NCBI GenBank assembly: GCA_035575235.1 | Contig: DATLYA010000316.1 | Location: 32,245 to 96,244 of the forward strand | Direction: 5' to 3' | DNA: 64,000 bases | Source: Candidatus Methylomirabilota bacterium | Lineage (GTDB): Bacteria; Desulfobacterota; Binatia; Bin18 | Shown: piece after piece, positions 3,223 through 63,649 of the stretch | Layout: each line of letters opens with the position of its first letter | Position numbering within the stretch: the stretch's first letter is position 1 | The notes under the pieces: generated by a model | Database searches by the model: none | What the model was told of the DNA's origin: nothing | What the model saw: the letters and a program-made list of their open reading frames with translations, nothing else | Program-made: the position numbers and the translations under genes

Positions 3223-3256
3223 TCTTTTATATAAAACATCTTCTGATGAGTCTCCA

Positions 3257-11136: not shown

Positions 11137-11346
11137 TCGCGGATTATCCCGCTCAGGATAAATATGACAGAAGATCAACGTAAGAGATCGAAGCACAAGA
11201 ACCGCTTTTTAAGGCTTTGGCGGAGGCTCTACCAGTTAGATAAATTTCTCAGGGTCAAGGACTCTCAATTGGGCGACGTGCCGGTGGATCGGATAACCGA
11301 TCCATCGGGCCAATAGCGCCTCTTACAGTGTCGCGGGGATAGTTTA

Positions 11347-11433
11347 GAGGGGCACGGCGCGCTGTGTCCCTCCAGTGCAGAGCGCTTGTTCTGCTGGAGT
11401 ATGAGCGCCGACTTTGATCGGCAAAGTTCATTA
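11347..11433 (+). repeat. Hairpin + 57-nt repeat, copy B (downstream of luxE-like gene)
   Basis: gaggggcac..gtgtccctc hairpin, then gcagagcgcttgttctgctggagtatgagcgccgactttgatcggcaaagttcatta (11377-11433). This is 52/57 identical to copy A, in the same orientation. Confidence 0.7.
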
Positions 11434-11549
11434 GAGGTCTTGCTGAAAGCGCGAAGCTGGGTCCTAACGCTGTCCGGCACACCGGTCCAGACTTTCACAG
11501 CTACGTTTCCCCTCCCCGACTTTACGTATCACGCCCGCTCTTCTATTTT

Positions 11550-16233: not shown

Positions 16234-16239
16234 AGTTGA

Positions 16240-17253
16240 TCACAAGGGAAGACGCACGCCTCCCTGCCGATGCGACGCATATCCTTGCTGTAAAAGCGCC
16301 AGACACGTCGCGGCGGCGCGAAGATTTGCTTCACCAGAAGATGGCTCTTCCAGGGCCTGGTAAAAATCATCGAGCAGCGGCGCGAACCATTCAGGGTGAT
16401 AAGAGGAGGCGATTATCGACTCGGGAAATCGTTGCGCGCATCCGGGCTCGTCAGGGCGCTCAAGGAGTAAGGAGACGGCGTCGAAATAAATCGTTCCTTT
16501 CGTTCCGCGTACGTATCCCTCATTGGCCCGGCGGTCGGCTCTCCAGGTGAGGTAAAATTGGACGCTTGCACTCCCGCAGCTTATGGTTCCCGCCGCTGTC
16601 TCTTCAATATCAACGGCGCCGCAGCCTGGAGGTTCGAGCCGCGCGGCGATTGCAGTTGGCGCTTTTTGCAAAAGAAAAGGCGCGAGATAAAACAGATGCC
16701 ACCCATGATCTACCAGAATGCCGCCGCCGGCTATGCGCCGATCTGTTCGCCATGACCCCGAGCCATGCGATGCGCCGGCTGGGTGGGCGCGCAGGACCTT
16801 CCACGCCAAACACTCAGGCGCGCCAATCGTCTCAGCTGCGATGGTTGCCCGTAGAGTTTGCAAAAGCGGCGCGTATTGCCAATTGTGCACGGTAAAAACA
16901 GCACGGTCGCGTTCAACGGCGTACCGTTGCAGTTGTCGCATGAGTGCGGCAGAGAGCGTCAGCGGCTTCTCACATAAAATGTGCACACTCTGTTCACACG
17001 CGCGCAGCAAGACGGTGTCGTGCAGCATCGGAGGCGTACAAATATCAACGAAGTCAATCTGCTCACGCGCCAGGCAGGCTTCGATGCTACCATAACACGC
17101 CGCGTCCGGCAGGAGGGTGCGCGCCAGCTGTAACCGCTCAGGCAACGGGTCGACAACAGCTATGAGCTCGAAACGCGTGTCCTGCAGCCAGGCTGAAAGA
17201 TGGCCATGGACCGCAACATTGCCAAAGCCAATGATCGCTCCTCGATAGCTCAC
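16240..17253 (-). CDS. Gfo/Idh/MocA-family NAD(P)-dependent dehydrogenase
   Basis: GAIIGFGNVAVHGH Rossmann N-terminus and ...ILCEKPL... motif. Confidence 0.8.
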   Translation of the reverse strand: MSYRGAIIGFGNVAVHGHLSAWLQDTRFELIAVVDPLPERLQLARTLLPDAACYGSIEACLAREQIDFVDICTPPMLHDTVLLRACEQSVHILCEKPLTLSAALMRQLQRYAVERDRAVFTVHNWQYAPLLQTLRATIAAETIGAPECLAWKVLRAHPAGASHGSGSWRTDRRIAGGGILVDHGWHLFYLAPFLLQKAPTAIAARLEPPGCGAVDIEETAAGTISCGSASVQFYLTWRADRRANEGYVRGTKGTIYFDAVSLLLERPDEPGCAQRFPESIIASSYHPEWFAPLLDDFYQALEEPSSGEANLRAAATCLALLQQGYASHRQGGVRLPL

Positions 17254-18599
17254 GCCTGGTAATCCACCTTATCAGCCACGAAGTCAAAGACCTCGTCAAG
17301 AATGGCGAGGCCCGTCTCCGCCAGCTCCAAAGAAATCGTCAGCGGCGGATTGAGCCGCACACGCGGCATGTAGCCCATCATGAGTAGTCCGCGCTTCAAT
17401 GCCTCTTGAAAAATCAGCTCCGTCACTTCGCGACGCAGCCCGATTTTGGACTGACGATCCTTCACCAGATCGAGGCCGATCAACAACCCTGCCCCACGCA
17501 CATCGCCGAGAAACTCGTACTTCTCTTGCATGGCGCGCAACCGCTCAAGCATGAAGGCGCCAACCCGCCGGGCGTTGTCTACTACTCCCTCGTCTTCGAT
17601 CGTCTCTATCGTACTCAACGCAGCAGCGGCCGCCAGCGGGTTTCCCCCATAACTCGACGAGGATGCACTGGGCTGAGAAAATGGCTTCGCCGCCATTATC
17701 TCATCACTGGAGATGACCCCAGTAACGGGAAATCCATTACCCATCCCTTTACCAACAGTCATGATGTCTGGCGTCACGCCGCTTAGCGCACAGCCAAACA
17801 GGTTTCCCGTGCGGCCAAAGCCGGTGATCATCTCGTCAACAATGAACAGGGCGTCATGCTCCCGGGCGACCTCTTTCATTACGGGAAGAAACTCAGGCGG
17901 AGGAACGATATTCCCCGCCGTGCCCTGCACCGGCTCGATGAGAAACGCCGCGATGGCGCCGCCGCTCGTGTGCTTCAGGCTCGTGCGAATGAAATCGGCG
18001 CAGGCGAGCCCGCATCCTGGGTAGCGCAGGTTGAGCGGACAACGATAGCAATCGGCATAGGGCACAAGATGAGTTCCACCAGGCAAGGGCCCCCAGCCCT
18101 GCTTAAAATTGTCGCCAACGAGGCCGAGCACCCCACCCGTCTTGCCATGAAATCCGCCCCAAAAGCCGACAACCTCATATTTTTTCGTGTATGCTTTCGC
18201 CAGCCGCAGCGCCGCCTCCACCGCCTCGGCGCCGCCGCTGAACAATTGAATCCGGTTGAGGTTGCCAGGCGTCAGCGCCGCAATTTTTTGCACAAGCCGT
18301 ACGCGCGCCTCCGAGGTGAAACTCCCGACAGTCACCCGGCGTAACTGTTCTTCAAGGGCGGCAACGTAGCGGGGATGGCTGTGCCCCAGGCTCGCCACAG
18401 TTACCCCGGCAAAAAAGTCGATAAAGGTGTTGCCGTCAACGTCCGTCAGAGTTGCGCCCTCGCCGTGGTCAAAGACCACGCCAGAGAGCAGAGAGATGCG
18501 CTGAATGCCTGGCGCCAAAAACGCCTGCTCAGTCTTCACTAACTGTTGCGAGCGCGGACCAGGAACACTCGTTCTTACAACCGGAAGCTTGCCACTCAC
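17250..18599 (-). CDS. Class-III PLP aminotransferase (GabT-like)
   Basis: FIDFFAGVTVASLGHSHP, SGGAEAVEAALRLAK, LFIVDEMITGFGRTG, MTVGKGMGNGFP. 4-nt overlaps with both neighbours. Confidence 0.85.
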   Translation of the reverse strand: MSGKLPVVRTSVPGPRSQQLVKTEQAFLAPGIQRISLLSGVVFDHGEGATLTDVDGNTFIDFFAGVTVASLGHSHPRYVAALEEQLRRVTVGSFTSEARVRLVQKIAALTPGNLNRIQLFSGGAEAVEAALRLAKAYTKKYEVVGFWGGFHGKTGGVLGLVGDNFKQGWGPLPGGTHLVPYADCYRCPLNLRYPGCGLACADFIRTSLKHTSGGAIAAFLIEPVQGTAGNIVPPPEFLPVMKEVAREHDALFIVDEMITGFGRTGNLFGCALSGVTPDIMTVGKGMGNGFPVTGVISSDEIMAAKPFSQPSASSSSYGGNPLAAAAALSTIETIEDEGVVDNARRVGAFMLERLRAMQEKYEFLGDVRGAGLLIGLDLVKDRQSKIGLRREVTELIFQEALKRGLLMMGYMPRVRLNPPLTISLELAETGLAILDEVFDFVADKVDYQA

Positions 18600-19459
18600 A
18601 GCGCTTGTTGTATCCGGCCCAGCAGGTGGTCAGCAATCGCCTGCGCCGCCGCATGGCGGCAGCGAGCAAAGCTTGGCCAATCGTTTAAGTCGATCAGCAC
18701 GAGAGTTCCCTCCGCTGAGAGGATACAATCTCCGCCAAAGACTTCAAGTCCAACCGCAGACGCTGCCCGGGTCGCCAAGGCGCCGACCTGCCGGCGCGTG
18801 TGCGCTTCAACCTCGGGGCAATCAAAGAAGCAACCAGGACCAACTCCATAAAACTTGATGACCGGCCCAGGGCAATGCCTTTGCAGCAGCGCTTGGACAA
18901 TGCCGCGACGAGCAAATGCCGCGAGCGCGGCATGATATGCGGCTGCTTCTTGCACAAAGACGACATCATCCGGCTGCGTGGCGTGCACGTCGGCGCGTTT
19001 AAGCCAGAAGCCGCCTGAAAAATCTGTAGGCCCAGGCTCCCGTGCCTGCCCATCTCTAGGACGCCTCTGGCAGGTTGCCCCTACGAAAGGTAGGAAAGAG
19101 AGTGCGTGAGAAGCGTCTGCAGTATTCACCGCCCAACTTTCCGGCATCAATACTCCCGCCGCGCGGCACAGCTCAACAGTCCGCGCCCGGCGGCAATTCC
19201 AGACCGCTGTGGGACTGTTAATCACCAGTGAACCGTGAGCCTGCCAGTGTTGAAGCTTGTGCAAATTCGCTCCTCCCTGCGCCATGGAAAACACTAGCCC
19301 TGGAGGCTTGGCGTCGCTCTGCAGCTCCTCCGTGCTCCAAAGCCGGACACGAACGCCACGCCGCCCAACCTCAGCAGCGACGGCTTCAAGGATGAGCGCA
19401 TCGTCACCGGTCCGTCCGGGAGAGAACATCGCTTCCCGGTACACGCCAACCACCTCCAT
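18596..19459 (-). CDS. ATP-grasp fold protein (ligase or ITPK1-like kinase type)
   Basis: ...FWLKRADVHATQPDDVVFV...VIKFYGVG...GLEVFGGDCILSAEGTLVLIDLNDWPSF resembles the ATP-grasp C-terminal Mg/ATP site. Start taken at ATG 19459, after GAGGAGG. The ORF-track start 19588 is the alternative. Confidence 0.55.
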   Translation of the reverse strand: MEVVGVYREAMFSPGRTGDDALILEAVAAEVGRRGVRVRLWSTEELQSDAKPPGLVFSMAQGGANLHKLQHWQAHGSLVINSPTAVWNCRRARTVELCRAAGVLMPESWAVNTADASHALSFLPFVGATCQRRPRDGQAREPGPTDFSGGFWLKRADVHATQPDDVVFVQEAAAYHAALAAFARRGIVQALLQRHCPGPVIKFYGVGPGCFFDCPEVEAHTRRQVGALATRAASAVGLEVFGGDCILSAEGTLVLIDLNDWPSFARCRHAAAQAIADHLLGRIQQAL

Positions 19460-19595
19460 TGCTTCCGCCTCCTCGCTCTGCCCCGGATTGTATTTCAGGC
19501 CACAGGGTTGGTCATGAGAAAAGCCGGGAGAGAATAGCCATGGCCTGTGTACGATGTATGGAGCGCCAACTATGTTTGCGCACTCCACAGTGCGC

Positions 19596-20315
19596 TTAGA
19601 GCGGGGTTAGACATTTCTCCTCTTCAGCAAGAAACGCCTCCGCCACAGCGATATCAGAGGGACGGTCTACATCAATTACTTTAGAAATATGATGTCCATA
19701 GAGCACATAACCGCTCGCAACGAGATAGCCGAAGAACTGACGCAAGGCGGTAAAATTCCTGTGCTGCGCTGTCTCTGCCTCCCGGAACACGCTCGGTGAG
19801 AACCAATACACCCCAGCAGTCACCAGTCCACCGGTGCGCGCCGATGGACCAAGCTGAACAACGCGATAGTCTTCGGCAAGCATCGCCCATAATGGTTTTT
19901 CATCATCAACGAATGACGTAACGCCGAGCACGCCATCGGCGTCAGGATGCCGCCGCGCCGTTGCTACCAATGCCGGAATTGTCGAGGAAGGAAACACCGC
20001 ATCGACCGTACAAAGCAGAAACGAATCTGCGTCAAGATACGGCTGCAGCGTCAGAAAACTCTCCAAGGAATGCGCTGTGCTTTTGCTCAACAGCGTGACG
20101 GGCATTCCCCATTCATGCTCCCGGCAATATTGAATGACCTCGGAAAATTTCTGGTTGACGATAACAACAGCTGCTTCGATTCCAGCTTGCTGAAGCCCGC
20201 GCAGGAGACGGGCGATGAGCGGTTGTCCGGCCAGCAGCGTCAGCGGTTTTGGCGTTGTCACACCGTGCGCTCGTAAACGCTGTCCTTCGCCAGCCGCAAG
20301 GATTGCCGCTCTCAT
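19596..20315 (-). CDS. Nucleotidyltransferase (LicC / IPCT-like cytidylyltransferase type)
   Basis: MRAAILAAGEGQRLR....PKPL is the intact G-x-G-x-R signature. About 240 aa with a ...GVYWFS... and ...VIDVDRPSDIAVAE tail, as in LicC-like enzymes. Confidence 0.8.
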   Translation of the reverse strand: MRAAILAAGEGQRLRAHGVTTPKPLTLLAGQPLIARLLRGLQQAGIEAAVVIVNQKFSEVIQYCREHEWGMPVTLLSKSTAHSLESFLTLQPYLDADSFLLCTVDAVFPSSTIPALVATARRHPDADGVLGVTSFVDDEKPLWAMLAEDYRVVQLGPSARTGGLVTAGVYWFSPSVFREAETAQHRNFTALRQFFGYLVASGYVLYGHHISKVIDVDRPSDIAVAEAFLAEEEKCLTPL

Positions 20316-20752
20316 CCCTCAATCTTCCCCCACGCAATGATTTTTTGCGGCGTGATGCGCACCACAGCATTGCCAGGAAAAATGAGGTTCATCACGCGGT
20401 ACTGCGGATAACGCTCTCTCAGCAACGCAAGCGCGGCGGCGTGTTCCGTTTCAGCCTCGACGATGTGGGCGGAACCTCTGACCATCACATACGCCAACTG
20501 CGTCCAATCGTCACTGTAATCATCAATGACAAGCGCGACTTGAGGATTTTCCAGAATATTGCGAATGCGTTTCAGCGGTTTGCCAGTCTGCTTCTTAGGT
20601 TTCTCATCAACAATAAAATAGAAACGAGCCCCATCGAACGCGTAGCAGAACGGAATAACATGAGGTTGCCCATGTGCGTCGGCAGTCGCTAAGCGCGCCA
20701 CGGCGTGGGACAGAATGAAGCGGCGGATAGGTTCAGTAATTGCTATGGGCAT
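20312..20752 (-). CDS. Pyridoxamine-5'-phosphate-oxidase-fold protein (PPOX class, possibly F420/FMN dependent)
   Basis: About 146 aa split-barrel pattern: ...ARLATADAHGQPHVIPFCYAFDG..FYFIVDEKPK... Confidence 0.7.
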   Translation of the reverse strand: MPIAITEPIRRFILSHAVARLATADAHGQPHVIPFCYAFDGARFYFIVDEKPKKQTGKPLKRIRNILENPQVALVIDDYSDDWTQLAYVMVRGSAHIVEAETEHAAALALLRERYPQYRVMNLIFPGNAVVRITPQKIIAWGKIEG

Positions 20753-20778
20753 AAACTGCAGATCATGCGGTGAGGAAA

Positions 20779-20818
20779 CACCCTCACATTCCCCTCAGGA
20801 GAGAGGGACAAGGTGAAG
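20779..20818. repeat. G/C-run palindromic repeat (CCCTC..GAGGG family), copy 2
   Basis: caccctcacattcccctcaggagagagggacaaggtgaag. Overlaps the last codons of the MBL gene. Confidence 0.4.
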
Positions 20819-21844
20819 CGAATCGACCTCCTCAGCCGATCCTTCTCCGCGAAACGCCTCTTGCGCCTCGCGATAGATCCGCTCAGCTTGCCCCGCGTAC
20901 CGCGGAGAGAAATGAAACACCACTAATTTTTTCACTCCTGCCGCACGCGCCAACAGGCCGGCCTGACGGGCGGTCAAATGGTAGCGCTTCGTGGCCTGAT
21001 CCTCGTCCTCAGTAAGAAATGGCGACTCACAGAAAAAGAGGTCTGCGTCGCGGGCCAATGTCGCAATGCGCGCGGCGTTGGCCGGGCTATACAACGTATC
21101 GACCACGTACGCGATCTTTTGTCCGCGCGTTTCTTTTATCAAGTGGCCGCGCACTTCGTGGAGGGGAAAATCACGAGCGTGTTCCACACCGTTTTTCTCC
21201 CGCCAACGTGCAGTCACAATATAATCGTCCGGCTCGTTCCGTCGCAGGGCGTGCTTCAGTTGCGAAAGCCACGGGCCAGTGGGCACGCCAAGCCGGGTCA
21301 GCATGTCCTTATCAACGTTCAGATGACTTTTTTCTTCCAGGGCAAAACCAAGGGAGTAAATCCGGTGATCCAAATGCGCCGCTCGCACGAGAAAAGCAGG
21401 TTCATCGAGCACTACGCCATCCACCAACGGCGCCTCAGTGAGCGCCTCGGGACGAAAGGCGCTGGCCGCGGGAAACAGGACACGGCGAATGCGTTCAGGC
21501 GCGATTTCGGCAGCCTCGATCACAAAGCCGTAGTTATCTACCAGATTCCAGGTGTACCCGCGCAGCTTTCCGTCCACACAGTCGAGAATCCCCGGCGGAC
21601 CATACACCACGAGTTTTTTGTCGCGCGCCAGGAACAACCGCAACAGCCGATCGAACCCAATGAAGTGATCTATGTGACAGTGCGACACAAACACATGGGT
21701 CGCGCGGAGCAGTTCCGCAGCGGGAAGGGTGTCATTTTGTCCTAAATCGAACAACAACGCTCGCCCTTCCCAACGCAGATGAATATATAAGCCCGGATCA
21801 CCAAAGGGGTTGTTCACCAGGCGAGCAGTAAATGCAGGATTCAT
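20795..21844 (-). CDS. MBL-fold metallo-hydrolase (RNase Z / RNase BN-like)
   Basis: HVFVSHCHIDHFIGF (HxHxDH), later ...FCESPF... and ...VFHFSPRY... motifs. Confidence 0.8.
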   Translation of the reverse strand: MNPAFTARLVNNPFGDPGLYIHLRWEGRALLFDLGQNDTLPAAELLRATHVFVSHCHIDHFIGFDRLLRLFLARDKKLVVYGPPGILDCVDGKLRGYTWNLVDNYGFVIEAAEIAPERIRRVLFPAASAFRPEALTEAPLVDGVVLDEPAFLVRAAHLDHRIYSLGFALEEKSHLNVDKDMLTRLGVPTGPWLSQLKHALRRNEPDDYIVTARWREKNGVEHARDFPLHEVRGHLIKETRGQKIAYVVDTLYSPANAARIATLARDADLFFCESPFLTEDEDQATKRYHLTARQAGLLARAAGVKKLVVFHFSPRYAGQAERIYREAQEAFRGEGSAEEVDSLHLVPLS

Positions 21845-21939
21845 GCATATAGGAGACGACGAGAATACACGCTCGTCAACTCCAGGGAACCGGAGTCACG
21901 ACCAGCGCCGACAGAGCCATGGTCTGAAGCAAATGAGAG

Positions 21940-22221
21940 TTACTGCCGTTTCAAAATAACAAATTGTTCCTTCATTTTGCTGACCTGATCTTGAATCGAC
22001 GGCAGATGGCGACTCTCCTTCAAGACCTGAAACACGTCGATATCCGACGCTTCGCGACGTCCTTCGGCAATTTCCCGGACGGCGTCGATGATCTCGTGGA
22101 TGACACGAGGGATTTCCCGTTGCGGAATCACTAAGTCGCCACGCCCTAGCGTCCCGCCCCAATGCGCGGCATAGGGACGGAGCACATTAAGGATTTTTTC
22201 CGTCACGCTTTTTTCAGCCAT
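21940..22221 (-). CDS. Hypothetical protein (93 aa)
   Basis: ATG at 22221 is preceded by a GGAAGGAGGAA RBS. No family recognised. Confidence 0.5.
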   Translation of the reverse strand: MAEKSVTEKILNVLRPYAAHWGGTLGRGDLVIPQREIPRVIHEIIDAVREIAEGRREASDIDVFQVLKESRHLPSIQDQVSKMKEQFVILKRQ

Positions 22222-22297
22222 TGGTATTCCTCCTTCCCCCCAGCGCCTTCCTTGCGGTTGAGCATTATCACTGTTGCCGCATGGCATTGCAAGAGAT

Positions 22298-22420
22298 GTG
22301 GAACGTGGGGTGTGGTGCGTACGGCGTGGTGCGTGTGACGTGTTGCGTAATTCGCAACATGGGATGTTGATGCTTCACGCACTACGCTTCACGTATCACG
22401 TTTCACCACCACGCCTCACG
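22298..22420. repeat. ACGCA/TGCGT-rich inverted repeat family, copy 3 (largest)
   Basis: The left half is GTGCGT-type (gtggtgcgtacggcgtggtgcgtgtgacgtgttgcgtaattcg). The right half is ACGCAC-type (cttcacgcactacgcttcacgtatcacgtttcaccaccacgcctcacg). Confidence 0.6.
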
Positions 22421-23267
22421 TTTTTTCTCCCTCGCCGCCGTATTTCTTCCCTAACTCCAGCGCTTCAGGCACGCCGAGCAGCGTGGTGATTTCACCAAAG
22501 GCGCCGGGCTCTGTGCTGTGCGTTATGGCGCCGGTGCGTTTGAGTTCTCGCATAGCGTCGCGCATCCGCAGGTAGAACACCGTCAAAGTCGCGGAGTTGA
22601 TCATGAGTTTGAAGCCCATCTTCGCGGTGTCCTGTACGGACAGCAGTTGCCCATTATACAGCAGCGGTAGCCCGCTCAGTTCTTGCACATATCGCTTCAT
22701 GTCCTCGAGCGTACGGATACCGTCAACAAAAATCAGATCAGCGCCCGCCTCGCGATAGGCATATGCCCGATTTTTGACGTCTTCCCATCCTGTCACGGCC
22801 AGCGCATCCGTGCGGGCAATAATGATCATATCCTTGCGCGCATCACAGGCGGCGCGCACCTTTGGCGCCATTTCCGCCAACGGAATGACTTGTTTCCCAG
22901 CCAGGAAACCACACCGCTTTGGCCAGACTTGATCTTCTATATGCAGCGCGGCGGCGCCTGCGGCCTCATACTCACGCACAGTGCGATAGACATTGACCGG
23001 ATTGCCGTAGCCGGTATCCGCATCGCAGATGAGAGGGATATCAACAGCGTTGGCGATGTAGCGCACGTTTTCGACCATCTCGGCCATCGTCAGCAAACCA
23101 ACATCAGGAAACCCGCGCGCCGCCGCCGTGCCGAAGCCCGTCATGTACACGGCCTCGAACCCGGCTGCTTGCGCGATTTTGGCCTGGAAGGCGTCAAACA
23201 CAAATGGAGCGACGACCATGTCCGCGCCCTGCAGCATCTGACGTAAACGTTGTCCTGCCTGTGACAT
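22416..23267 (-). CDS. Isocitrate lyase / PEP mutase superfamily enzyme (methylisocitrate lyase / oxaloacetate decarboxylase-like)
   Basis: ...VVAPFVFDAFQAKIAQAAGFEAVYMTGFG...ICDADTGYGN...ALHIEDQVWPKRCG. ATG at 23267 after AAGGAGG. Confidence 0.85.
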   Translation of the reverse strand: MSQAGQRLRQMLQGADMVVAPFVFDAFQAKIAQAAGFEAVYMTGFGTAAARGFPDVGLLTMAEMVENVRYIANAVDIPLICDADTGYGNPVNVYRTVREYEAAGAAALHIEDQVWPKRCGFLAGKQVIPLAEMAPKVRAACDARKDMIIIARTDALAVTGWEDVKNRAYAYREAGADLIFVDGIRTLEDMKRYVQELSGLPLLYNGQLLSVQDTAKMGFKLMINSATLTVFYLRMRDAMRELKRTGAITHSTEPGAFGEITTLLGVPEALELGKKYGGEGEKT

Positions 23268-23454
23268 ACGCTTCTCCTCCTTTTTGTCGAACACAGCGAC
23301 GCCGTGCTTTTACGACCAGAGATCGGCAATCGCGACAGACACGTCCGGCAGGAGAGCAAGCGCCGGCCGCTTATCTGGCGCTGAACGGATAGTCTGCCTA
23401 TAGCCGTCAGCGCCAGGTTGCCGATACACTTCTACTTCTTCTTGCGACACTGGG

Positions 23455-54549: not shown

Positions 54550-55491
54550 TTAAGATTGTTTTGTCGAGCCCTCTCGATTTTGCACAAATTGCCAGCCGAA
54601 GCGTCCTTTAATGCAGAGGTGCCCATGGCTCACGTCGTGATCAAGCGGCGACGTTGCTTTGACAATACGATTATCCTGCACATGGAGCGTGAGCGTACAA
54701 CCGACTCCACAATAGGGACAAATGGTGTCAGTCTGCGTCTGCTTACCCTCATCCCAGGTTCCGGCTTGCCGCATCTCGTACTCACTGCGAAACATCAGGG
54801 CGCCGGTGGGGCACACGCCGATACAGTTGCCGCAATACACACAGGCAGAATCAGGCAGAGGAACGGCAAACTCAGTAGAAATACGCGCGTCAAAGCCCCG
54901 CCCCGCCACCGCAATGGCGAAGGTGTTCTGCGCATCTGTCCCGCAGGCTTCCACACATTTGTAGCAGAGGATACAGCGGGAATAATCGCGAATGTAGAGA
55001 TTATTATCCATCTTCACCGGCTGGGCGACAGTGGCGGCAGTAACGCCATCCGGCGCAGGATGCTGGCCGGTGTGACGATGATCGCGCTCCCCGCCAGCGG
55101 CAGGCGGACCAAAACGTTCAGGATGGGCGCCATACTGTTGCAGATAGGCCTTCACCACCGGCGCGACGGAAAGATCGGCTGAAGACGCAAGAAACTCCAA
55201 AACGAGACGGCGGCTGAGCCGCACGCGTTCCGAATCCGTTCGCACGACCATGCCTTGTTCGACTTTCCGCGAGCAAGCAGGAACAAGGGTGCGCGAGCCT
55301 TCCACTTCCACCACGCACACCCGACACACGTTGACCGGGGTCAGATTTTCCAGGTAACACAGCATCGGTGTCGAAATATTCCGCGAACGACAGGCGTCCA
55401 GCAGCGTCGCACCTTCCGGAACACGGACAGGCTGTCCATCAATAGTTAACTCGACAATACGGTTGAGAGTGGTGGAGAATACGGCAGCCAT
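54550..55491 (-). CDS. NuoG/FdsA N-terminal-like Fe-S subunit ([2Fe-2S] + [4Fe-4S] clusters, including the molybdopterin-enzyme FS0 domain), detached from the catalytic domain
   Basis: TIDGQPVRVPEGATLLDAC...CRVCVVEV, CILCYKCVEAC, CVYCGNCIGVCPTGAL. Then ICPYCGVGCTLTLHV...HLCIKGRFGWQF, then stop. Confidence 0.85.
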   Translation of the reverse strand: MAAVFSTTLNRIVELTIDGQPVRVPEGATLLDACRSRNISTPMLCYLENLTPVNVCRVCVVEVEGSRTLVPACSRKVEQGMVVRTDSERVRLSRRLVLEFLASSADLSVAPVVKAYLQQYGAHPERFGPPAAGGERDHRHTGQHPAPDGVTAATVAQPVKMDNNLYIRDYSRCILCYKCVEACGTDAQNTFAIAVAGRGFDARISTEFAVPLPDSACVYCGNCIGVCPTGALMFRSEYEMRQAGTWDEGKQTQTDTICPYCGVGCTLTLHVQDNRIVKATSPLDHDVSHGHLCIKGRFGWQFVQNREGSTKQS

Positions 55492-55504: not shown

Positions 55505-57349
55505 TCAGAAAATTTTCAACTTTGTGAGGGCAGATTCGATCGCGCTGGCGGCAGTCTGTCCCAGACCACAAATCGAGGCATCGCGCATGACCTGGCTAAT
55601 CTCCGCGCGGAGTGTCAATTCATTTTGGAGAGATCCGAGCAGATGTTGAGAGTGCATACGTTGCAGCCATTCCTCTTGCCGCACGGTCCCCACTCGACAG
55701 GGAACGCATTGACCGCAGGACTCGTCACGGAAAAAAGCGGCGATACGACGCAGTATTGCTTTGATATCGATGGCATCGTCAAACACCATGACCACGCCGG
55801 AACCGAGCGTTGCGCCGATCGCGCGCACCCCTTCAAACGTCAGCGGCGTATCGAGTTGATCGGGCGTCATAAACACCCCAGCCGCGCCGCCAAGCAGCAC
55901 GGTCTGTAGGGACCGTTGGTTCCGCACACCGCCCGCCAGCGCCAATAATTGGCGCAGAGTTATGCCAAACTCGACCTCGTACACGCCTGGATGCGTGACA
56001 CAGCCGGAGACACAAAAGAGTTTTGTGCCGGTAGAGCCTGACGTACCAGTAGCAGCAAAAGCAGGGCCGCCCTGCAATACGATATCGAGAACATTCACCA
56101 ACGTCTCGACGTTGTTAATCACCGTCGGTTTCCCAAACAGTCCATGCTGCACCGGGAACGGCGGTTTGTTGCGCGGCTCGCCTCGATACCCTTCAATGGA
56201 ATTGAGCAGCGCGGTTTCTTCTCCACAAATATACGCGCCTGCCCCACGGCGAAGTTCGATATCGAAACGAAACCCGCGCCCCATCACATTTTCACCCAGC
56301 AGACCACGAGCACGGGCTTGGGCAATAGCGTTTTGCAAGCGTCTAGCCGCCAAGGGATATTCACCGCGGATGTAGATGTAGCCGTGCTCACAATTTGTTG
56401 CGAATCCGGCGATCGTCATCGCTTCCAGCAGCGCGAACGGATCTCCCTCCATTACCACCCGGTCTTTAAACGTGCCAGGCTCCGATTCGTCCGCATTACA
56501 GACGAGATAATGGGGACGCGCGGCGGCGCGAGCGACGGCTTCCCATTTTCTCCCCATCGGGAAAGCTGCTCCGCCACGCCCTAAAAGCTTGGAGTCGTTG
56601 ACCTCGCGGATTACTCCTTCAGGGCCAAGCTCGATAGCGCGACGTAATGCCGCGTATCCACCATGGGAGCGATAAGAGTCCAGATTCGTCGGATCAGCAA
56701 CGCCAACCCGCCGGAGTAAATGCAGGCGCGGATCACCACCTTGAGGAATTGCTATTTGTCGAGCCTCGGGGTGAAACTTGTCTTGTACAGCATTGACAAT
56801 CTCTGCCGCCCTCGTCGGCGCAAGCGCCCGTCCTTCCGCCGTAGAGCCAGCCGTAAGGACAAGCGCCGCCGGCGCACGGTCACAGAGTCCTAAGCAGGGA
56901 CTGCGATGCCAAGCGGCTTGACCGTTCTTGTTGGCGGAGCCCGCGGGACCAAGTCTCTGCTCCAGTTCCACGCAGACCTGCGCTGCGCCGTTCGCCAGAC
57001 ACGCGATATCATCACAGACATGCACCGCGACTGGCGGCTGCGGCGTCAAAGAGAACAGCGCGTAGAAACTCGCCACGCCATATGCTTCGGCGGGAGGAAT
57101 ATCGAGCCGCTGGCAAATATAATTGAGCGCTTCAGGGCTAATCCATCCCATACGATCCTGCACCGCGTGGAGCGTGGGCAGCAGCAAATGGCGTTGTGCG
57201 CGGAGCGCATGACCACCCCGCGCCTTGCGCCCGTCTTTCGCGATGTCGCGTCTTCCGCCTGTCCAGCCAGACTCTGGAGGACCCAATACCGCATCGACTG
57301 CTGCTTGCTCTTCTGGTTTGGCTGGAATCTCACGTAACCGCAGGTCCAT
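55505..57349 (-). CDS. NuoE-NuoF-like fusion (NAD(P)H/FMN-binding diaphorase subunit, FdsG/FdsB type)
   Basis: NuoE part is LPTLHAVQDRMGWIS...HVCDDIAC...SPCLGLCDRAP. NuoF part is GRGGAAFPMGRKW, ...ESEPGTFKDR..., ...ESCGQCVPCRVGT. Confidence 0.85.
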   Translation of the reverse strand: MDLRLREIPAKPEEQAAVDAVLGPPESGWTGGRRDIAKDGRKARGGHALRAQRHLLLPTLHAVQDRMGWISPEALNYICQRLDIPPAEAYGVASFYALFSLTPQPPVAVHVCDDIACLANGAAQVCVELEQRLGPAGSANKNGQAAWHRSPCLGLCDRAPAALVLTAGSTAEGRALAPTRAAEIVNAVQDKFHPEARQIAIPQGGDPRLHLLRRVGVADPTNLDSYRSHGGYAALRRAIELGPEGVIREVNDSKLLGRGGAAFPMGRKWEAVARAAARPHYLVCNADESEPGTFKDRVVMEGDPFALLEAMTIAGFATNCEHGYIYIRGEYPLAARRLQNAIAQARARGLLGENVMGRGFRFDIELRRGAGAYICGEETALLNSIEGYRGEPRNKPPFPVQHGLFGKPTVINNVETLVNVLDIVLQGGPAFAATGTSGSTGTKLFCVSGCVTHPGVYEVEFGITLRQLLALAGGVRNQRSLQTVLLGGAAGVFMTPDQLDTPLTFEGVRAIGATLGSGVVMVFDDAIDIKAILRRIAAFFRDESCGQCVPCRVGTVRQEEWLQRMHSQHLLGSLQNELTLRAEISQVMRDASICGLGQTAASAIESALTKLKIF

Positions 57350-57379: not shown

Positions 57380-59332
57380 TTAATCAGGCTGACCCGTGCG
57401 CAACACACTCTCGCTGGACGAAGTCAGTCCCACACCGACACGTTCCAGCTTCTCAATGCGAATCGCCGTTGCTTTGAATTCCGCCGTTCCCGACTTCGGA
57501 TCGATTGCTTCAATGGTCAACTGATTCGTGTCTACTTCATCAGGGAAATGCAACGTCATGAACGCCAAACCGGGACGAAGGGAGGCATCATAGCGCACTG
57601 GGGCCACAATCGAGCCTCGACGCGAAGAGATACGCACTCGTTCTCCATCGCTGACTCCATACCGCAGTCCATCCTCGGGCGAGAGATCCAGCGTCTCACC
57701 GCGCCGTAGCGGTGAGCGATAGCCGCCGCTTTGGACGCCGGTATTGTACGAATCGAGCCGACGCCCTGTCGTCAGACGAATTGGGAAATCCTCATCCACT
57801 CGATCAACCGGCGGATCATGTTCAACAGCATGAAACGGCGCTCTTGGGCCTTTGACCGGCTCTTCCCATAAACGACCGTGGAGAAAGGGCGATCCCGGAT
57901 GCGTTTCGTCATAACATGGCCACTGCAGGCCGCCATGTTCCTCCAGCCGCGCATAGCTCATGCCGGCATGATTGGGACTGAGACGACGCACTTCATTCCA
58001 TACGGCTTCTGCTGTTGGTTGACCCCATGCATACCCGAGCCGATCGGCAAGAGCGCAAATGATGGCAATATCATCACGGGCTTGTCCCGGCGGGTTCAAC
58101 GCTTTCCGCACCCGCTGCACGCGGCGTTCACTATTCGTGACTGTTCCTTCGGCTTCGCACCAGCTAGCAGCTGCAGGGAGGACGACGTCTGCCAATTCCG
58201 CCGTGGCGGTCAGGAAAATGTCCTGCACGACCAGATGCTCAAGTCCTTTGAGGAGGTGCAGCGCGTGCGACACATCAGCCTCTGACTGCGCAGGGTTTTC
58301 ACCAATTACATATAAGGTGGTCAGCTCCTTCCGTTCCATCGCCTCGAACATGGCGCTCAGATGCCAGCCGCGTTTGGGAGGAATCTTCTTGCCCCATGCT
58401 GCTTCAAATTTGGCGCGCACCACACCATCTTCGACATGCTGGAATCCAGGAAGGCGGTCCGGGAGAGCACCCATATCACCGCCACCCTGCACATTGTTTT
58501 GGCCGCGTAAGGGATTGAGTCCAGAGCCATAGCGACCTACATGGCCAGTCAATAACGCCAGATTGATGAGCGCCAGCACGTTGTCCACGGCATTGTGATG
58601 TTCGGTAATGCCTAACGTCCAGCAGATCATCGCCCGGTCCGCACGAGCATACGCATGCGCCAGCTCGCGGATCAACGCGGCAGGCACGCCGGTTTCACGC
58701 TCCGCATAGTCGAGCGTGTACTTCTCCGCCGTCGAACGGTACTCTGCAAACCCCGTCGTAGCGCGTACGATGAACTCTTGGTTGGCCAATCCTGCGGCGA
58801 TGATTTCTCGCCCCATCGCATTGGCCAACACGATGTCTGTGCCGACATCAAGCCCAAGCCATCCATCCGCCCATTGCGCTGAACTCGTGCGCCGTGGATC
58901 AACGACATAGAGCCGCGCGCCCCGGTGGATGGCTTTCAGCACGTGGTGAAAAAAGATCGGATGCGCCTCTCGCGCGTTCGATCCCCACAAGATAATCAGG
59001 TCGGTCTCTTCCACCTCTTTATACGAGCTGGTGCCGCCCCCTGCGCCAAAGACTGTCGCCAGACCGGCGACGCTCGGCGCGTGTCAAGTGCGATTGCAAC
59101 TATCAATGTTATTGCTGCCAATCACCAGCCTGGCGAACTTTTGGGCCATGAAATTCGTCTCGTTCGAAGCTTTCGAACAGCTAAAGAGTCCAAACGTTCT
59201 CGGTCCATGCTTCTCTATGGCGCGTTGAAATCCTGTGGCAGCGCGCGTCAGCGCCTCATCCCACGAGACAGGACGGAGCTTACCGTTATTACGGACGAGC
59301 GGTTCGGTGAGACGAACATAAGAACGTTTCAT
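57380..59332 (-). CDS. fdhA: Formate dehydrogenase catalytic (Mo/W-bisPGD) subunit, selenocysteine-containing; in-frame UGA at 59084..59086
   Basis: ORFs 59084..59362 and 57380..59014 are in the same frame. Read-through gives NNIDSCNRT-U-HAPSVAGLATVFGAGGGTSSY, the FdhF-like RVUHGPSVA context. A SECIS lies downstream. Start is at ATG 59332 (MKRSYVRLTEPLVR) or 59362. Confidence 0.85.
59043..59083 (-). promoter_or_regulatory. Bacterial SECIS element
   Basis: On the mRNA: UGA-CAC-GCGCC-GAGC-GUCGCC-GGUCU-GGCGAC-AGUCUUU-GGCGC. The GGUC apical loop starts 18 nt after UGA, as in E. coli fdhF. Confidence 0.7.
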
Positions 59333-59345
59333 ATCAGAGCCTTTC

Positions 59346-60230
59346 TTACCTATCGCAAGCAATTCGTTCCGGATGTGTATACACGTTAAAAGAGGAGTTG
59401 CGCAGAAAACCGACCAGCGTCAGGCCCAAGCGCTGCGCAGTTTGCACGGCAAGGCTGGACGGGGCTGACACGGCGCACACCAGAGGCGCGCGCGCCATGG
59501 CGGCTTTTTGCACAATTTCAAAACTCAGCCGACCTGAGACCATCAGCACCTGGTTCGCCAGTGAGGGCGCGCCTGCCAACACTTGATGTCCCACGATTTT
59601 ATCGACCGCGTTGTGACGCCCCACATCTTCCCGCAACACCAGCAAACGGCCAGCGGCGTCAAAAAGGCCCGTCGCATGCAAACCGCCAGTTTGCGCAAAG
59701 AGCTGCTGCCTTTGCCGCAGGACATGCGGCAACTCTACGAGCAGCGAACGCGCGATGACCAGGCCAGAAGCAACCGGAGCGCAACGGACCGCGACTTGTT
59801 CGAGCGAGGCTTTCCCACAAACGCCGCAACTCGACGTCGCATAAAAATTGCGCCGCAATGGCGCGGGATCAAACGGATGTGTGAGGGTTACTGTCACGGT
59901 ATTACACGGCTGCCCATCCAGTCGTCGCGTATTCGCTTCGATATCGCGAATCTCCGCACGAGCCTGAATCAGGCCTTCGGTCAACAAAAATCCCAGAGCT
60001 AACTCGTCGTCATGTCCTGGAGTGCGCATCGTGACGGCAACGTTGCACGCGTCCTGGTCCGGCCCTTGCACGCGAATCTCCAAAGGCTCTTCCGCGGCAA
60101 GCCAATCCGTGCGGCCGCGAACCTCATCATCTCGAACCGAGAGGAGCTGTGTTTTTACCACGCCTCCGTACTGACGCAGCAGGTCATTTTTCTTGTGCGC
60201 TGGTAACAAGAGCTGCCCTTTCTCGTTCAT
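59346..60230 (-). CDS. fdhD: FdhD formate dehydrogenase sulfurtransferase/accessory protein
   Basis: ...YATSSCGVCGKASLEQV... (FdhD Cys pair) and ...REDVGRHNAVDK... The start is ATG 60230 or 60269. Confidence 0.8.
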   Translation of the reverse strand: MNEKGQLLLPAHKKNDLLRQYGGVVKTQLLSVRDDEVRGRTDWLAAEEPLEIRVQGPDQDACNVAVTMRTPGHDDELALGFLLTEGLIQARAEIRDIEANTRRLDGQPCNTVTVTLTHPFDPAPLRRNFYATSSCGVCGKASLEQVAVRCAPVASGLVIARSLLVELPHVLRQRQQLFAQTGGLHATGLFDAAGRLLVLREDVGRHNAVDKIVGHQVLAGAPSLANQVLMVSGRLSFEIVQKAAMARAPLVCAVSAPSSLAVQTAQRLGLTLVGFLRNSSFNVYTHPERIACDR

Positions 60231-60286
60231 GAGAGTGCAAAGCCCGCTATCGTTATGCCAAACCAGCATAACGATCAGTAAAAAAT

Positions 60287-60622
60287 TTATGTCTGTTGAA
60301 AGGCTTTCTTAAATTTCCTGTGTACTAATCCTTTCAAGCCTGCGGTAAACTTATGAAAATGCCGTACATACTCGCGTCCTTCCGGCGTCAGACAAGTTCC
60401 ACCGCCATGCTTCCCTCCCACTGCTCTTTGCGTAAGCTTCACGCCAAGACCTTCTTCCATTTCCTTCAGTTTCCGCCAGGCCACGCGAAAATGCACCCCG
60501 CGCTCGGCGGCAGCCGCATTGATGGACCCAGTGCGCTCCACTGCTTCCAAGAGCGCGATCCGCCACTCACTCAAGACAACTTTTCCATCTTTCTCTAGCC
60601 AAAAGTTGGAACGCGGCTCCAT
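60287..60622 (-). CDS. ModE-N-terminal-like winged-helix regulator (no Mop/TOBE domain)
   Basis: ...WRIALLEAVERTGSINAAAAERGVHFRVAWRKLKEMEEGLGVKLTQRAVGGKHGGGTCLTPEG matches the ModE N-domain pattern (GSIs.AA...SY+.AW..i...n......GG..GGga.LT..G). Confidence 0.65.
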   Translation of the reverse strand: MEPRSNFWLEKDGKVVLSEWRIALLEAVERTGSINAAAAERGVHFRVAWRKLKEMEEGLGVKLTQRAVGGKHGGGTCLTPEGREYVRHFHKFTAGLKGLVHRKFKKAFQQT

Positions 60623-60720
60623 AGGGTTTGCATCTTTCAATATTCTCTATAAGTCATTACAATGGAACATTAAAAGACACAAGCCTTATGCATAGAAATC
60701 ACATTGTGTTTATTCCCTCC

Positions 60721-62268
60721 CTAGAACGCGAACAGTGCATCAAGTTGCATGCGATTTACGGCAGAATTCGGTTGATTATGCGGACGGTCGATGAAGTTCA
60801 CAAAGTATCCCTTGGCCGTCAAAGTGAGGCGCGGGAGCAGCATGTAATCGAATTTGACGATGGGACCTTGCACGTTCGTTCCGCCGCGCCGACCGAAGTC
60901 GCTGAGCGTGAACATGGAAATGACGGAGTCGGTCTCCACACGCGTCCAGGCCGCCGAGAGGGCCACGTCGCCAGGATCACGCGTCTGGCCAATGCCCGCT
61001 CCAATGATATAGGCGTCATCCATGCCGAAGGCCGCTTCAGTGTTGTGCGCATAATCCACCATGAGCGTGAACGGCCACTTGGCATAGCCGGTGTCCAACG
61101 CCAATTGTGCGCCGGCATTCACGATATTAAACCCGCCAGCAAAACGTTGAATGGGATTAGTCGTGCTCGGCGTAATCAGATCTCCGCCACGCACCACTTG
61201 GCCATTTCTCAGTTTGACGGAATTGGTCAACACCAACGCACTATTGCGGTTACGCTCCTGCGCCACCGCATCGGAACGAAAGAAATAGTAATCCCCGGCC
61301 GCTAGCGTCAGTTGCGTCTTCGGCGTCGGGGCAACGGTGGCCTGCAGTTGCTCACCGATCATGTAGGAGTCCCGCTCCGCCGCGAACTCCTTAATCGCCC
61401 ACTGCCCTGCCGCCAGTTTTATGCTTCTGAGCCAATCTTTTCCTTCAAAGACCGTAACTTCTTCCGCCGCCCCTTCCGGCGTCAGATCTTCATCAAACAC
61501 TAACTCCGAGCTCATAATAGCGCGCGGGCGGAAGAAGTTGACGCTAAACTTACCGCCGGTAACCGAAAAGAATGACTTCTCAAGGCCAATGCTCCTGCCC
61601 GGCCTAAGAGTGATATACGCATTGTCAATGTTGATCGGCTTGCGAGTGAAGACATCAGTCAGCGTCTGGTTATTGGCGGCGATCTCATTGGGATCACCGC
61701 TGACCAATCGCAGGCCGCCTTCAATCTCGTCATTCACCGCAATACGTGCGCCCACTCGTAAGCGCAATCGTTGACGATTGCGCGCGTGAACATCTTCCTG
61801 ATAGAATCCCTCATGTCGCACACGGATATCGCCAAAGAAGGTAAAGCGGTTGAGCCAGTCAATGTTCTTCTTGACATCGGCCACGGCGGTCCTCCTCAGC
61901 TCTGCCATCGCTTGATTCTGCTTCTCAGCCTGCGCTTGAGCTTGCTGCTGCAAGGCGTGTTGTTGTGACTCCAGGCGCGATAAGCGCTCGCTCACCTCTG
62001 GCGCCACGGGAGCGGCGAGCACCGCAGAGGTTGAGGGTGCTTTGAGTTGCGCTAAGTCCTTCTCACTCAAGATGCCTTTTGCTTGGAGCAATTGAATCAG
62101 TGCATCATGTTCGGCTTTCGGCATCGTCGTTCTGCTTTTCTTTAGTCGCTGCGCTTCTTTCTTGCTCAACACTCCCTTCGATTGCAAAATATCTATAAGT
62201 GACCCCTCCTGTGCCTGTACTGCCCCCGCCATCATTAAGGTCAACACCACCGCCACTATCCGTGCCAT
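60721..62268 (-). CDS. Outer-membrane porin-like beta-barrel with duplicated N-terminal helical motif
   Basis: Signal peptide (..AGAVQAQ). LQSKGVLSKKEAQRLKK and LQAKGILSEKDLAQLK repeats. Coiled coil, then long alternating-strand region ending ...MQLDALFAF. Confidence 0.6.
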   Translation of the reverse strand: MARIVAVVLTLMMAGAVQAQEGSLIDILQSKGVLSKKEAQRLKKSRTTMPKAEHDALIQLLQAKGILSEKDLAQLKAPSTSAVLAAPVAPEVSERLSRLESQQHALQQQAQAQAEKQNQAMAELRRTAVADVKKNIDWLNRFTFFGDIRVRHEGFYQEDVHARNRQRLRLRVGARIAVNDEIEGGLRLVSGDPNEIAANNQTLTDVFTRKPINIDNAYITLRPGRSIGLEKSFFSVTGGKFSVNFFRPRAIMSSELVFDEDLTPEGAAEEVTVFEGKDWLRSIKLAAGQWAIKEFAAERDSYMIGEQLQATVAPTPKTQLTLAAGDYYFFRSDAVAQERNRNSALVLTNSVKLRNGQVVRGGDLITPSTTNPIQRFAGGFNIVNAGAQLALDTGYAKWPFTLMVDYAHNTEAAFGMDDAYIIGAGIGQTRDPGDVALSAAWTRVETDSVISMFTLSDFGRRGGTNVQGPIVKFDYMLLPRLTLTAKGYFVNFIDRPHNQPNSAVNRMQLDALFAF

Positions 62269-62804
62269 CGTTCCTCCTCTATCGCCAGCTCCACCGTGGT
62301 AAATAATTGTTCAAACTCTTGCCGTGCTTGCTCGAAATCGGGGTCAAATGCGCTGGTGGATTTGTCACCGACAAACGATGCGTCGATTTGTTCAATTAAC
62401 TGGCGCACCTGCATGCGCTGCGCGGGAGGCCACACAATCTGCCCGTCTTCCGCCTCTTCTAGATCCGCACTGAGAAACAGAAACCGGACGGACTCCTCCA
62501 TGGCGAATCGTTGCATCATGGCGTAGTCAGCGGCGCGGCGCGGATTCAAACACGGCCTACCCTGGATACGAAAACGCCCTGGCGCGTCCAGACAAAAGGG
62601 AATGGCGGTCACCCAGGTTCCCTGCGCATTCCGCCAGGTGCAGAATCCCACCCGGGCGCGGTATGCATGCTGAAAAGGAGTAAGGTCCTGCACCCGCATG
62701 GTCAACACCGGCTCGCGCCATTCCCGCATGACAATGAGCACGGAGGTATAAAGTGGGGCCTGAAGCATAAACGAATGAAAGGAAGGCAGTAACTCGGCTT
62801 TCAT
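62256..62804 (-). CDS. Hypothetical protein (182 aa)
   Basis: 4-nt overlap with the tupA-like stop and 13-nt overlap with the porin start. No family recognised. Confidence 0.5.
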   Translation of the reverse strand: MKAELLPSFHSFMLQAPLYTSVLIVMREWREPVLTMRVQDLTPFQHAYRARVGFCTWRNAQGTWVTAIPFCLDAPGRFRIQGRPCLNPRRAADYAMMQRFAMEESVRFLFLSADLEEAEDGQIVWPPAQRMQVRQLIEQIDASFVGDKSTSAFDPDFEQARQEFEQLFTTVELAIEEERWHG

Positions 62805-63649
62805 TTGCTCACCTCTCGGATGACGGCGTCTTCCGTCTTTCCCGCGTCTGGAGTGAATAACGGCTCGCCAAATTTCTCTTTGCCGAACGTCTTCAACAAG
62901 TCTTGCACGGTAGGAGACAACAAAAAATCGGCGAACGCCTTCCCGCCTTTGGCGTTCACCTTGGGAAACTTTTCCGGGTTCACTTCCATGACATGATAGA
63001 CGTTGAGAAACGCAGGGTCGCCTTCAAGCAACACGCTCAAGCCCGTAGTTTTCTGAAACGCCAGAAACGTCGCCCGGTCGGAGAGCACATACCCTTGCTT
63101 CTCGCCGGCAATGCTAAGGGTCTTGCCCATGCCCTGCCCAGCCTCTAAATACCAGTCGCCAGCCGGTTTGATCCCCGCCTGTTCCCATAGCTTCTTTTCG
63201 AGTTTATGCGTGCCGGAATCGTCCCCCCGTGAGACAAAGACCGCCTTTGCCTCGGCGATTTTTTTGAATGCATCAACAGCTTTGACTGTTCCTTTCACGT
63301 GCGCGGGATCAGCCGCCGGGCCGGCCAACAGAAACCAGTTATGCATCATCAGACGGCGGTTTATCAGCCCGCCATCAGCGACATATTTTTTCTCCGCCTC
63401 GGGCGCGTGCGCGAGCACGACATCCGCCTCACCTCTCCCCGCTAAGGCTAGCGCTTGCCCCGTGCCTACAGCCACCGCCTTGACGTGATAACCACTTTGT
63501 TTCTCAAAGATCGGCACGATGACATCGAGCAGTCCCGTGTCCTGCACGCTCGTCGTCGTGGCAAAGATTAATTCTTCCTGAGCAGCCGCGGCGCCAGCAC
63601 AGGCGAGCACAACGCCTACCAGCAGAGTAAGAAAGTGGCCCCTCCTCAT
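62801..63649 (-). CDS. tupA: Tungstate/molybdate ABC-transporter periplasmic binding protein (TupA-like)
   Basis: Signal peptide, then LIFATTTSVQDTGLLDVIVPIFEKQSGYHVKAVAVGTGQALALAGRGEADVVLAHAPEAE, the TupA TTTS..D(S/T)GLLD signature. GGGAGG RBS. Confidence 0.75.
   Translation of the reverse strand: MRRGHFLTLLVGVVLACAGAAAAQEELIFATTTSVQDTGLLDVIVPIFEKQSGYHVKAVAVGTGQALALAGRGEADVVLAHAPEAEKKYVADGGLINRRLMMHNWFLLAGPAADPAHVKGTVKAVDAFKKIAEAKAVFVSRGDDSGTHKLEKKLWEQAGIKPAGDWYLEAGQGMGKTLSIAGEKQGYVLSDRATFLAFQKTTGLSVLLEGDPAFLNVYHVMEVNPEKFPKVNAKGGKAFADFLLSPTVQDLLKTFGKEKFGEPLFTPDAGKTEDAVIREVSK

Follow-up and report, generated by a model that had tools for sequence, protein, structure and literature searches.

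A gene on the minus strand of a 64,000-nucleotide stretch of DNA from a Candidatus Methylomirabilota bacterium (GenBank assembly GCA_035575235.1, contig DATLYA010000316.1, positions 32,245 to 96,244; hereafter the window) very probably encodes a single selenocysteine (Sec)-containing Mo/W-pterin formate dehydrogenase (FDH), for which Sec insertion at an in-frame UGA, recoded via a downstream hairpin, is predicted. The gene extends from 59332 to 57380 and is listed as two open reading frames (ORFs). Judging from homology and from conservation among relatives, the TGA is almost certainly a Sec codon in the FDH catalytic subunit, and the two ORFs almost certainly belong to one gene. The features on which this reading depends are as follows.

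57380..59332, minus strand: catalytic subunit gene of a Mo/W-bis-pyranopterin guanosine dinucleotide (bisPGD) formate dehydrogenase, 650 aa with predicted Sec at residue 83 (translation and homology)
59084..59086, minus strand: UGA codon predicted to be read as Sec, motif U-H-A-P (alignment to Sec140 of E. coli FdhH; TGA in 81 of 81 distinct loci)
59055..59071, minus strand: putative core Sec insertion sequence (SECIS), a 6-bp apical hairpin GUCGCC-GGUCU-GGCGAC (sequence, minimum free energy (MFE) of -9.5 kcal/mol, synonymous conservation, RNAalifold)
59043..59080, minus strand: extended stem, in this sequence only, with arms GCGCCGA/UUGGCGC and two middle pairs around the core (MFE structure, -22.0 kcal/mol for 38 nt)

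The interrupted reading frame and its conservation

Translation of 59332..57380 on the minus strand gives one frame of 651 codons, in which the sole in-frame TGA is codon 83 (59086-59084). An 82-codon stretch from the ATG at 59332 precedes the TGA, and this ATG is supported as the start because homologues align from residue 1. The ORF list shows the frame as two pieces, 59084..59362 (92 aa, TTG start) and 57380..59014 (544 aa, GTG start), which share one frame, as the distance from 59086 to 59014 is 72 nt or 24 codons. In a public assembly with the same sequence (GCA_037024555.1, contig JBAIGL010000058.1), two ORFs are likewise called. On translation, the context of the TGA is ...GSNNIDSCNRT-stop-HAPSVAGLATVFGAGGGTSSYKEVEETDLIILWGSN..., and the residues spanning codon 83 would read ...CNRT-U-HAPSVAGLATVFGAGGGTSSYK. 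The original prediction, made from the letters of the sequence and a list of its ORFs, had read the same peptide through the TGA, had placed the ORF 57380..59014 in the same frame and had joined the two ORFs into one Sec formate dehydrogenase gene. The first two points are reproduced by translation, and the third is borne out by the alignment of the TGA with a known Sec residue, by FDH homology from end to end and by retention of the TGA in relatives.

For a homology search of the structure database (PDB, phmmer), the stop was replaced by Cys. Over its full length, the protein matched FDH catalytic subunits of known structure, namely FdhF of the Thermoanaerobacter kivui hydrogen-dependent CO2 reductase (HDCR; 7qv7, E 6e-156), the entry 7bkb (E 8e-147), FdhH of E. 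coli (1aa6, E 1e-135) and FdsA of Rhodobacter capsulatus (6tg9, E 1e-122). Its Pfam domains are PF00384 and PF01568 (Molybdopterin and Molydop_binding). For alignment with the E. coli enzyme, fdhF of strain MG1655 was taken by coordinates; a blastn search with the present gene against E. coli genomes gave no match. In the protein alignment, U83 corresponds to Sec140 of FdhH, H84 to His141 and R276 to Arg333, His141 and Arg333 being catalytic residues. The U-H-A-P sequence at codon 83 agrees with the FdhA Sec motif UHxP (PMC13188914, Table 1). The peptide around the TGA had been proposed to be the conserved active-site context of Sec- and Cys-type FDHs; these three aligned residues support that proposal, as does the alignment with Sec- and Cys-type FdhA proteins, in which the TGA takes the Sec140 position and actinobacterial orthologues have Cys. 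The catalytic subunit begins at about residue 61 of E. coli FdhH, and its match to R. capsulatus FdsA begins at residue 308; the N-terminal Fe4S4 domain is not on the catalytic polypeptide and is encoded in the operon on a separate subunit (see below).

A scan of one genome per species yielded 80 relatives with 70-78% identity; the codon comparison covers 81 distinct loci. The relatives come from Chloroflexota, Acidobacteriota, Methylomirabilota/Rokubacteria, Gaiellales and other Actinomycetota, Planctomycetota, Spirochaetia and Dormibacterota metagenome-assembled genomes (MAGs). TGA is present at codon 83 in 80 of 80 of these related genome loci, preceded by ...DSCNRT and followed by HAPSV..., so that the peptide is conserved on both sides. 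Six independent assemblies agree exactly in the TGA-containing sequence. Among database proteins, those most closely related (77-100% identity) are without exception truncated calls of 510-565 aa that cover about 80-84% of the query, and actinobacterial proteins with 67-70% identity are of full length and uninterrupted, with Cys at the position of codon 83.

The two called ORFs might instead be taken at face value. The TGA would then be a true stop, and the locus either a pseudogene or the source of two polypeptides of 82 aa and about 544 aa that are translated separately. The output of gene callers, the GTG codon 72 nt downstream at 59014 and the fact that the family already tolerates one split of the alpha subunit (its Fe-S half) are in keeping with this explanation. 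However, the 24 codons from the TGA to the GTG, which encode the invariant HAPSVAGLATVFGAGGGTSSY including the catalytic His and a Gly-rich stretch, would go untranslated, and, to judge from their lengths of 510-565 aa, the called downstream ORFs of the relatives have no common start. Moreover, the Cys-type orthologues are continuous, and TGA and hairpin occur together in 81 of 81 loci across phyla, which is unexpected of a pseudogene. Close orthologues do not have a genuine stop followed by an independently started downstream ORF, an arrangement that the original prediction had named as evidence against itself. The probability of a true stop is regarded as very slight indeed.

A sequencing or assembly error that turned TGC or TGT (Cys) into TGA would need only a single-base change, and Cys-type orthologues exist. 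Such an error would have to be reconciled with the identity of the TGA in six independent assemblies and its presence in 80 other genomes, and with the hairpin that accompanies the TGA but is lacking in Cys-type genes; its probability is practically negligible. Genome-wide reassignment of TGA was rejected, as TGA terminates 19 of the 49 Pfam-supported ORFs in the window and the genetic code is therefore standard. A search of the window for other TGA-interrupted frames yielded nothing beyond ordinary gene ends and antisense frames.

In a related sequence on a 2.2-kb contig of a farmland metagenome (L090:413-460, protein P0016), the Sec TGA is replaced by CGA (Arg), yet a perfect hairpin, GUCGUC-GGUCU-GACGAC, is retained. 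A recent mutation, an inactive allele or an error in sequencing could each account for the CGA.

The hairpin downstream of the UGA

The hairpin lies inside the coding region, directly downstream of the UGA, and consists of GTCGCC (59071-59066), the loop GGTCT (59065-59061) and GGCGAC (59060-59055). Between the UGA and the stem lie 12 nt, and between the UGA and the loop 18 nt. The hairpin sequence had been recognized in the original prediction, which had the stem-loop begin 18 nt after the UGA; that distance fits the loop, not the stem. A lower stem formed by GCGCC (59080-59076) and GGCGC (59047-59043) had also been proposed and does form in this sequence, but it is not conserved in the relatives. 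As its two wobble-position pairs are unpaired in 39 of 76 and 50 of 76 relatives, the lower stem is not claimed as a conserved part of the element and is treated here as unselected.

In the bacterial SECIS consensus, the loop is 3-9 nt and the upper stem 4-16 bp, a G is present in the first two loop positions, the spacing from the UGA to the loop is 16-37 nt and the MFE is -7.5 kcal/mol or lower (PMC13188914, Fig. 2). The present hairpin agrees in all four respects, with a 5-nt loop on a 6-bp Watson-Crick stem, a GG loop start, a spacing of 18 nt and an MFE of -9.5 kcal/mol (17 nt) or -22.0 kcal/mol. It also conforms to a more general description, in which the stem has 6-8 bp and a G some 20 nt away from the UGA is conserved (PMC4605307). 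Within the window, a Watson-Crick hairpin of 6 bp or more in SECIS geometry follows 52 of the 2077 TGA triplets (2.5%), and among these 52 only the present one has a GGUC loop.

The decisive support for the hairpin is comparative, the evidence from the single sequence being weak. Across the 81 loci, the hairpin codons at +5 to +9 are GTC (100%), GCC (100% of the Ala codons), GGT (95%), CTG (100%) and GCG (100%). Synonymous entropy in these loci is 0 at four of the hairpin codons and 0.32 bit at the fifth, compared with 1.2-2.0 bits at nearby four- and six-fold degenerate codons. In the Cys-type orthologues (L087-L089), the identical peptide S-V-A-G-L is specified by GTG, GCG/GCC, GGC/GGG and CTC/CTG codons, and no hairpin is present. 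Pair 26-34 is CG in 42 sequences, UG in 28 and UA in 6; it is unpaired in none and never C.A, despite Ala/Val changes at +6 and Ala/Thr changes at +9. RNAalifold keeps the 6-bp apical hairpin as the sole structure. The covariation of the 15-pair extended stem exceeds that of shuffles (1/500), but this score depends on one apical pair. Taken together, these patterns of codon use and pairing show that selection acts on the hairpin at synonymous sites, over and above the constraint from the encoded protein.

The third base of the loop varies among the relatives on an unchanged stem: GGGCU is found in three Rokubacteria/Methylomirabilota loci (L014, L017 and L034) and GGACU in one locus of Planctomycetia (L074). 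In E. coli, the corresponding base is a U required for SelB binding. The variation may reflect lineage-specific recognition by SelB.

In the proposed mechanism, the hairpin GUCGCC-GGUCU-GGCGAC would form in the mRNA 12 nt after the UGA during translation and would display the GGUCU loop at a distance of about 18-20 nt downstream from the codon that occupies the ribosomal A site. The UGA would then be decoded as Sec without termination, and the single gene 59332..57380 would yield the catalytic subunit of a Mo- or W-pterin FDH with Sec83 as the metal ligand.

Several results weigh against this reading. Taken alone, the sequence does not fold more stably than its shuffled versions (z = -0.82), a value that is uninformative in a G+C-rich coding sequence; comparative tests were used instead. 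No Rfam family reaches its gathering score anywhere in the 64-kb window. The Rfam family SECIS_3 (RF01989), which has been used to find the SECIS of mycobacterial fdhA (bioRxiv 10.64898/2026.03.03.709296), aligns end to end over 59030-59089 and in register from the UGA, yet weakly (15.3 bits, E 0.71, gathering score 63). This alignment was used as a lead only, and by the Rfam threshold the element is not a member. The catalytic subunit covers positions 53-672 of the FDH profile TIGR01591 and scores 654.3 bits, just below the cut-off of 666.25, as the Fe4S4 domain is absent from the catalytic polypeptide. Lastly, selA, selB, selD and the tRNA-Sec gene were not found in the 64-kb window by ARAGORN, by Pfam searches of about 59 ORFs or by tblastn with SelD and SelB; ARAGORN identifies no tRNA gene of any kind in the window.

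This last result fits a further explanation, in which the UGA is read through without Sec, as Trp, Cys or Arg by near-cognate decoding or a suppressor after loss of the Sec machinery, giving a weak or inactive enzyme. The farmland contig with CGA and an intact hairpin also fits it, by indicating that the position can drift. Against this explanation, the present gene retains a perfect SECIS, and its sequence does not differ among six assemblies. The gene is intact, as is the entire operon, TGA codons elsewhere in the window serve as ordinary stops, and relatives have selC, selD and a selB-like gene beside the orthologue. Read-through of this kind seems highly unlikely.

Genes for Sec synthesis and insertion were located near the orthologous gene in several relatives. 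A tRNA-Sec gene (ARAGORN) lies 1.5-5.4 kb upstream of it in nine Chloroflexota loci (L011, L012, L018, L025, L028, L033, L060, L071 and L081). A nearby selD was found by tblastn in 16 loci, for example at L081:3145-4212 (TIGR00476, 335 bits, cut-off 125), and a selB-like gene in five. In relatives of the Chloroflexota type, selC, selD and sometimes a selB-like gene are thus positioned 1.5-5.4 kb upstream of the FDH gene, an arrangement that looks like a compact selenium-utilization and FDH island. In L025, the selB-like ORF continues into a MobA-like domain, which is possibly an artefact of mechanical ORF listing.

The operon and its surroundings

The gene order on the minus strand is a TupA-like gene, a 182-aa ORF, a porin gene, a ModE-like gene, fdhD, the Sec subunit gene, a NuoE-NuoF fusion gene, the gene for a 313-aa Fe-S protein and an aldehyde dehydrogenase gene. 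The features around the Sec subunit gene are as follows.

62801..63649, minus strand: TupA-like periplasmic tungstate/molybdate-binding protein (PF12849; NF041772 TupA, 202 bits, below the cut-off of 400)
60721-62804, minus strand: 182-aa ORF of no family and a Porin_5 porin, after the TupA-like gene
60287..60640, minus strand: ModE-like helix-turn-helix regulator, upstream of fdhD (PF00126; TIGR00637 ModE_repress, 73 bits, below the cut-off of 98.5)
59346..60269, minus strand: fdhD, accessory sulfurtransferase, directly upstream of the FDH gene (PF02634, E 2e-71; NF001943, 295.7 bits, cut-off 269)
55505..57349, minus strand: NuoE-NuoF fusion, presumed NAD(H)/flavin mononucleotide (FMN) diaphorase subunit (Pfam 2Fe-2S_thioredx, Complex1_51K, SLBB and NADH_4Fe-4S)
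54550..55491, minus strand: separate Fe-S subunit of 313 aa, NuoG/FdsA-like N-terminal half (Pfam Fer2_4, Fer4 and Molybdop_Fe4S4, the last at residues 253-305)

The Fe-S subunit aligns to residues 25-306 of R. capsulatus FdsA, and its C-terminal residues 256-307 align to residues 6-56 of E. coli FdhH, with the Cys ligand pattern present. The profile TIGR01591 is divided accordingly, positions 1-52 falling on the Fe-S subunit (54550-55491) and positions 53-672 on the Sec subunit. These alignments indicate that the FDH alpha subunit is split into two genes at the boundary of the Fe4S4 and Mo domains, between FdsA residues 306 and 308. Of 84 related loci, 68 have the order Mo subunit, NuoE-NuoF fusion, Fe-S subunit, in Sec and Cys forms alike (L087-L089 and most of L007-L086). 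No description of a split-alpha FDH architecture was found in the literature, the coverage of which was incomplete, so that this absence does not prove novelty.

The NuoE-NuoF fusion protein scores 460 bits against TIGR01959, below the cut-off of 558.65, and its PDB matches include the FDH beta subunits 6vw7_B and 7e5z_B. The Sec subunit would probably assemble with this fusion, which would carry FMN and the NAD+/NADH site, and with the Fe-S subunit, which would supply the missing Fe4S4 domain. The product would be a soluble NAD-linked enzyme resembling FdsABG or FoDH1, into which FdhD would insert the sulfido ligand. Actual Sec insertion and SelB binding are inferred, as are the use of NAD+ for accepting electrons and the preference between W and Mo.

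A cluster mate of the TupA-like protein is named 'tungstate transport system substrate-binding protein' by the Joint Genome Institute (JGI), and the TupA-like protein may supply the metal. An aldehyde:ferredoxin oxidoreductase gene, cut by the start of the window, is located at 46-1563 on the plus strand. Together, the TupA-like, ModE-like and aldehyde:ferredoxin oxidoreductase genes hint at tungsten. A gene for a MoaD/ThiS-like protein lies at 3149-3499 on the plus strand.

Two further groups of genes are present elsewhere in the window. A cluster of phosphonate type on the minus strand (15025-23294) includes genes for phosphoenolpyruvate phosphomutase (22416-23294), a nucleotidyltransferase (19596-20315), a class-III aminotransferase (17250-18599), a GFO/IDH/MocA oxidoreductase (16240-17253) and a CDP-alcohol phosphatidyltransferase (15025-16233), which suggests a phosphonolipid or phosphonoglycan pathway. 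At 10072-12857 on the plus strand, a gene for a LuxE-like acyl-protein synthetase is located beside one for a LuxC-like acyl-CoA reductase, followed by those for an aminotransferase and an SCP2-domain protein.

Relation to known formate dehydrogenases

No bacterial selenoprotein is more widespread than FdhA (PMC1794560; PMC13188914). The gene described here is a further member of this commonest family, with a classic SECIS of the fdhF type, and as such is expected rather than surprising. In NCBI nr, proteins of the neighbouring genes carry the accessions HXG21530-HXG21540 and are assigned to the MAG of a Methylomirabilota bacterium; the NuoE-NuoF fusion is HXG21534 and FdhD is HXG21536. The intervening number, HXG21535, is matched by neither of the called fragments, and a full-length protein with X is absent from the collection searched; GenBank may already hold a single Sec-annotated coding sequence as HXG21535.

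The finding matters in practice for annotation. As a result of gene calling of the Prodigal type, this enzyme and dozens of its orthologues appear in public collections as two fragments each, and metabolic reconstructions can therefore miss or mislabel a working FDH, together with its selenium dependence, in MAGs of Methylomirabilota, Chloroflexota and Acidobacteriota. Less ordinary is that the Cys-type NAD-dependent Fds enzymes would here have a Sec-type relative whose alpha subunit is split, which may interest those working on CO2 reductases.

The characterized NAD+-dependent enzymes of the Fds type have a Cys ligand, not Sec, and a single-chain alpha subunit (PMC13397495). Because all of them are single-chain and Cys-type, the present gene could belong to a new architectural and cofactor variant, namely a large uncharacterized clade of soluble, probably NAD-linked and possibly tungsten-dependent Sec FDHs of soil and sediment bacteria (Chloroflexota, Acidobacteriota, Methylomirabilota, Gaiellales and others). 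This broader proposal is tentative, and we put its chances slightly below even. In the layout of the clade, the Fe-S half comes after the NuoE-NuoF fusion, as in an fdsGBA operon with its gene order rotated.

With E. coli FdhH, the predicted protein shares 38% identity over residues 7-629, including the aligned active-site Sec, His and Arg. At the RNA level, the loop GGUCU occupies nt 19-23 after the UGA in both genes, at the same offset and within the same A-G-L codons; the resemblance to the fdhF SECIS that had been noted at the outset is thus upheld by the MG1655 sequence. The two elements differ in their stems: the fdhF stem is GUUGCA/UGCACC and the corresponding 48-nt stretch has an energy of -14.9 kcal/mol, whereas the present stem is a perfect, G+C-rich helix of 6 bp and the energy is -23.5 kcal/mol. 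In FdhH, the N-terminal Fe4S4 domain (residues 6-56) is part of the same polypeptide; here it is on another protein. The partners also differ; FdhH works with hydrogenase 3, whereas a module of the NuoEF type is encoded in the present operon.

The system also resembles FdsABG(D) of R. capsulatus and Cupriavidus necator, in that the Fe-S and Sec subunits jointly cover residues 25-306 and 308-931 of R. capsulatus FdsA. NuoE- and NuoF-like modules and an adjacent fdhD are shared both with FdsABG(D) and with FoDH1/MeFDH1 of Methylorubrum extorquens, in which the two modules are fused in Fdh1B. FdsD was not identified in the present operon. Unlike the Fds/FoDH1-type enzymes, the present one would have a Sec ligand and an alpha subunit encoded by two genes, in the order Mo subunit, NuoE-NuoF fusion, Fe-S subunit. 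The nearest Cys-type systems are the actinobacterial orthologues of Streptomyces, Saccharopolyspora and Thermopolyspora, which have 67-70% identity, the same split and the same gene order, but differ in having TGC or TGT in place of TGA, no hairpin, and fdhD downstream instead of upstream.

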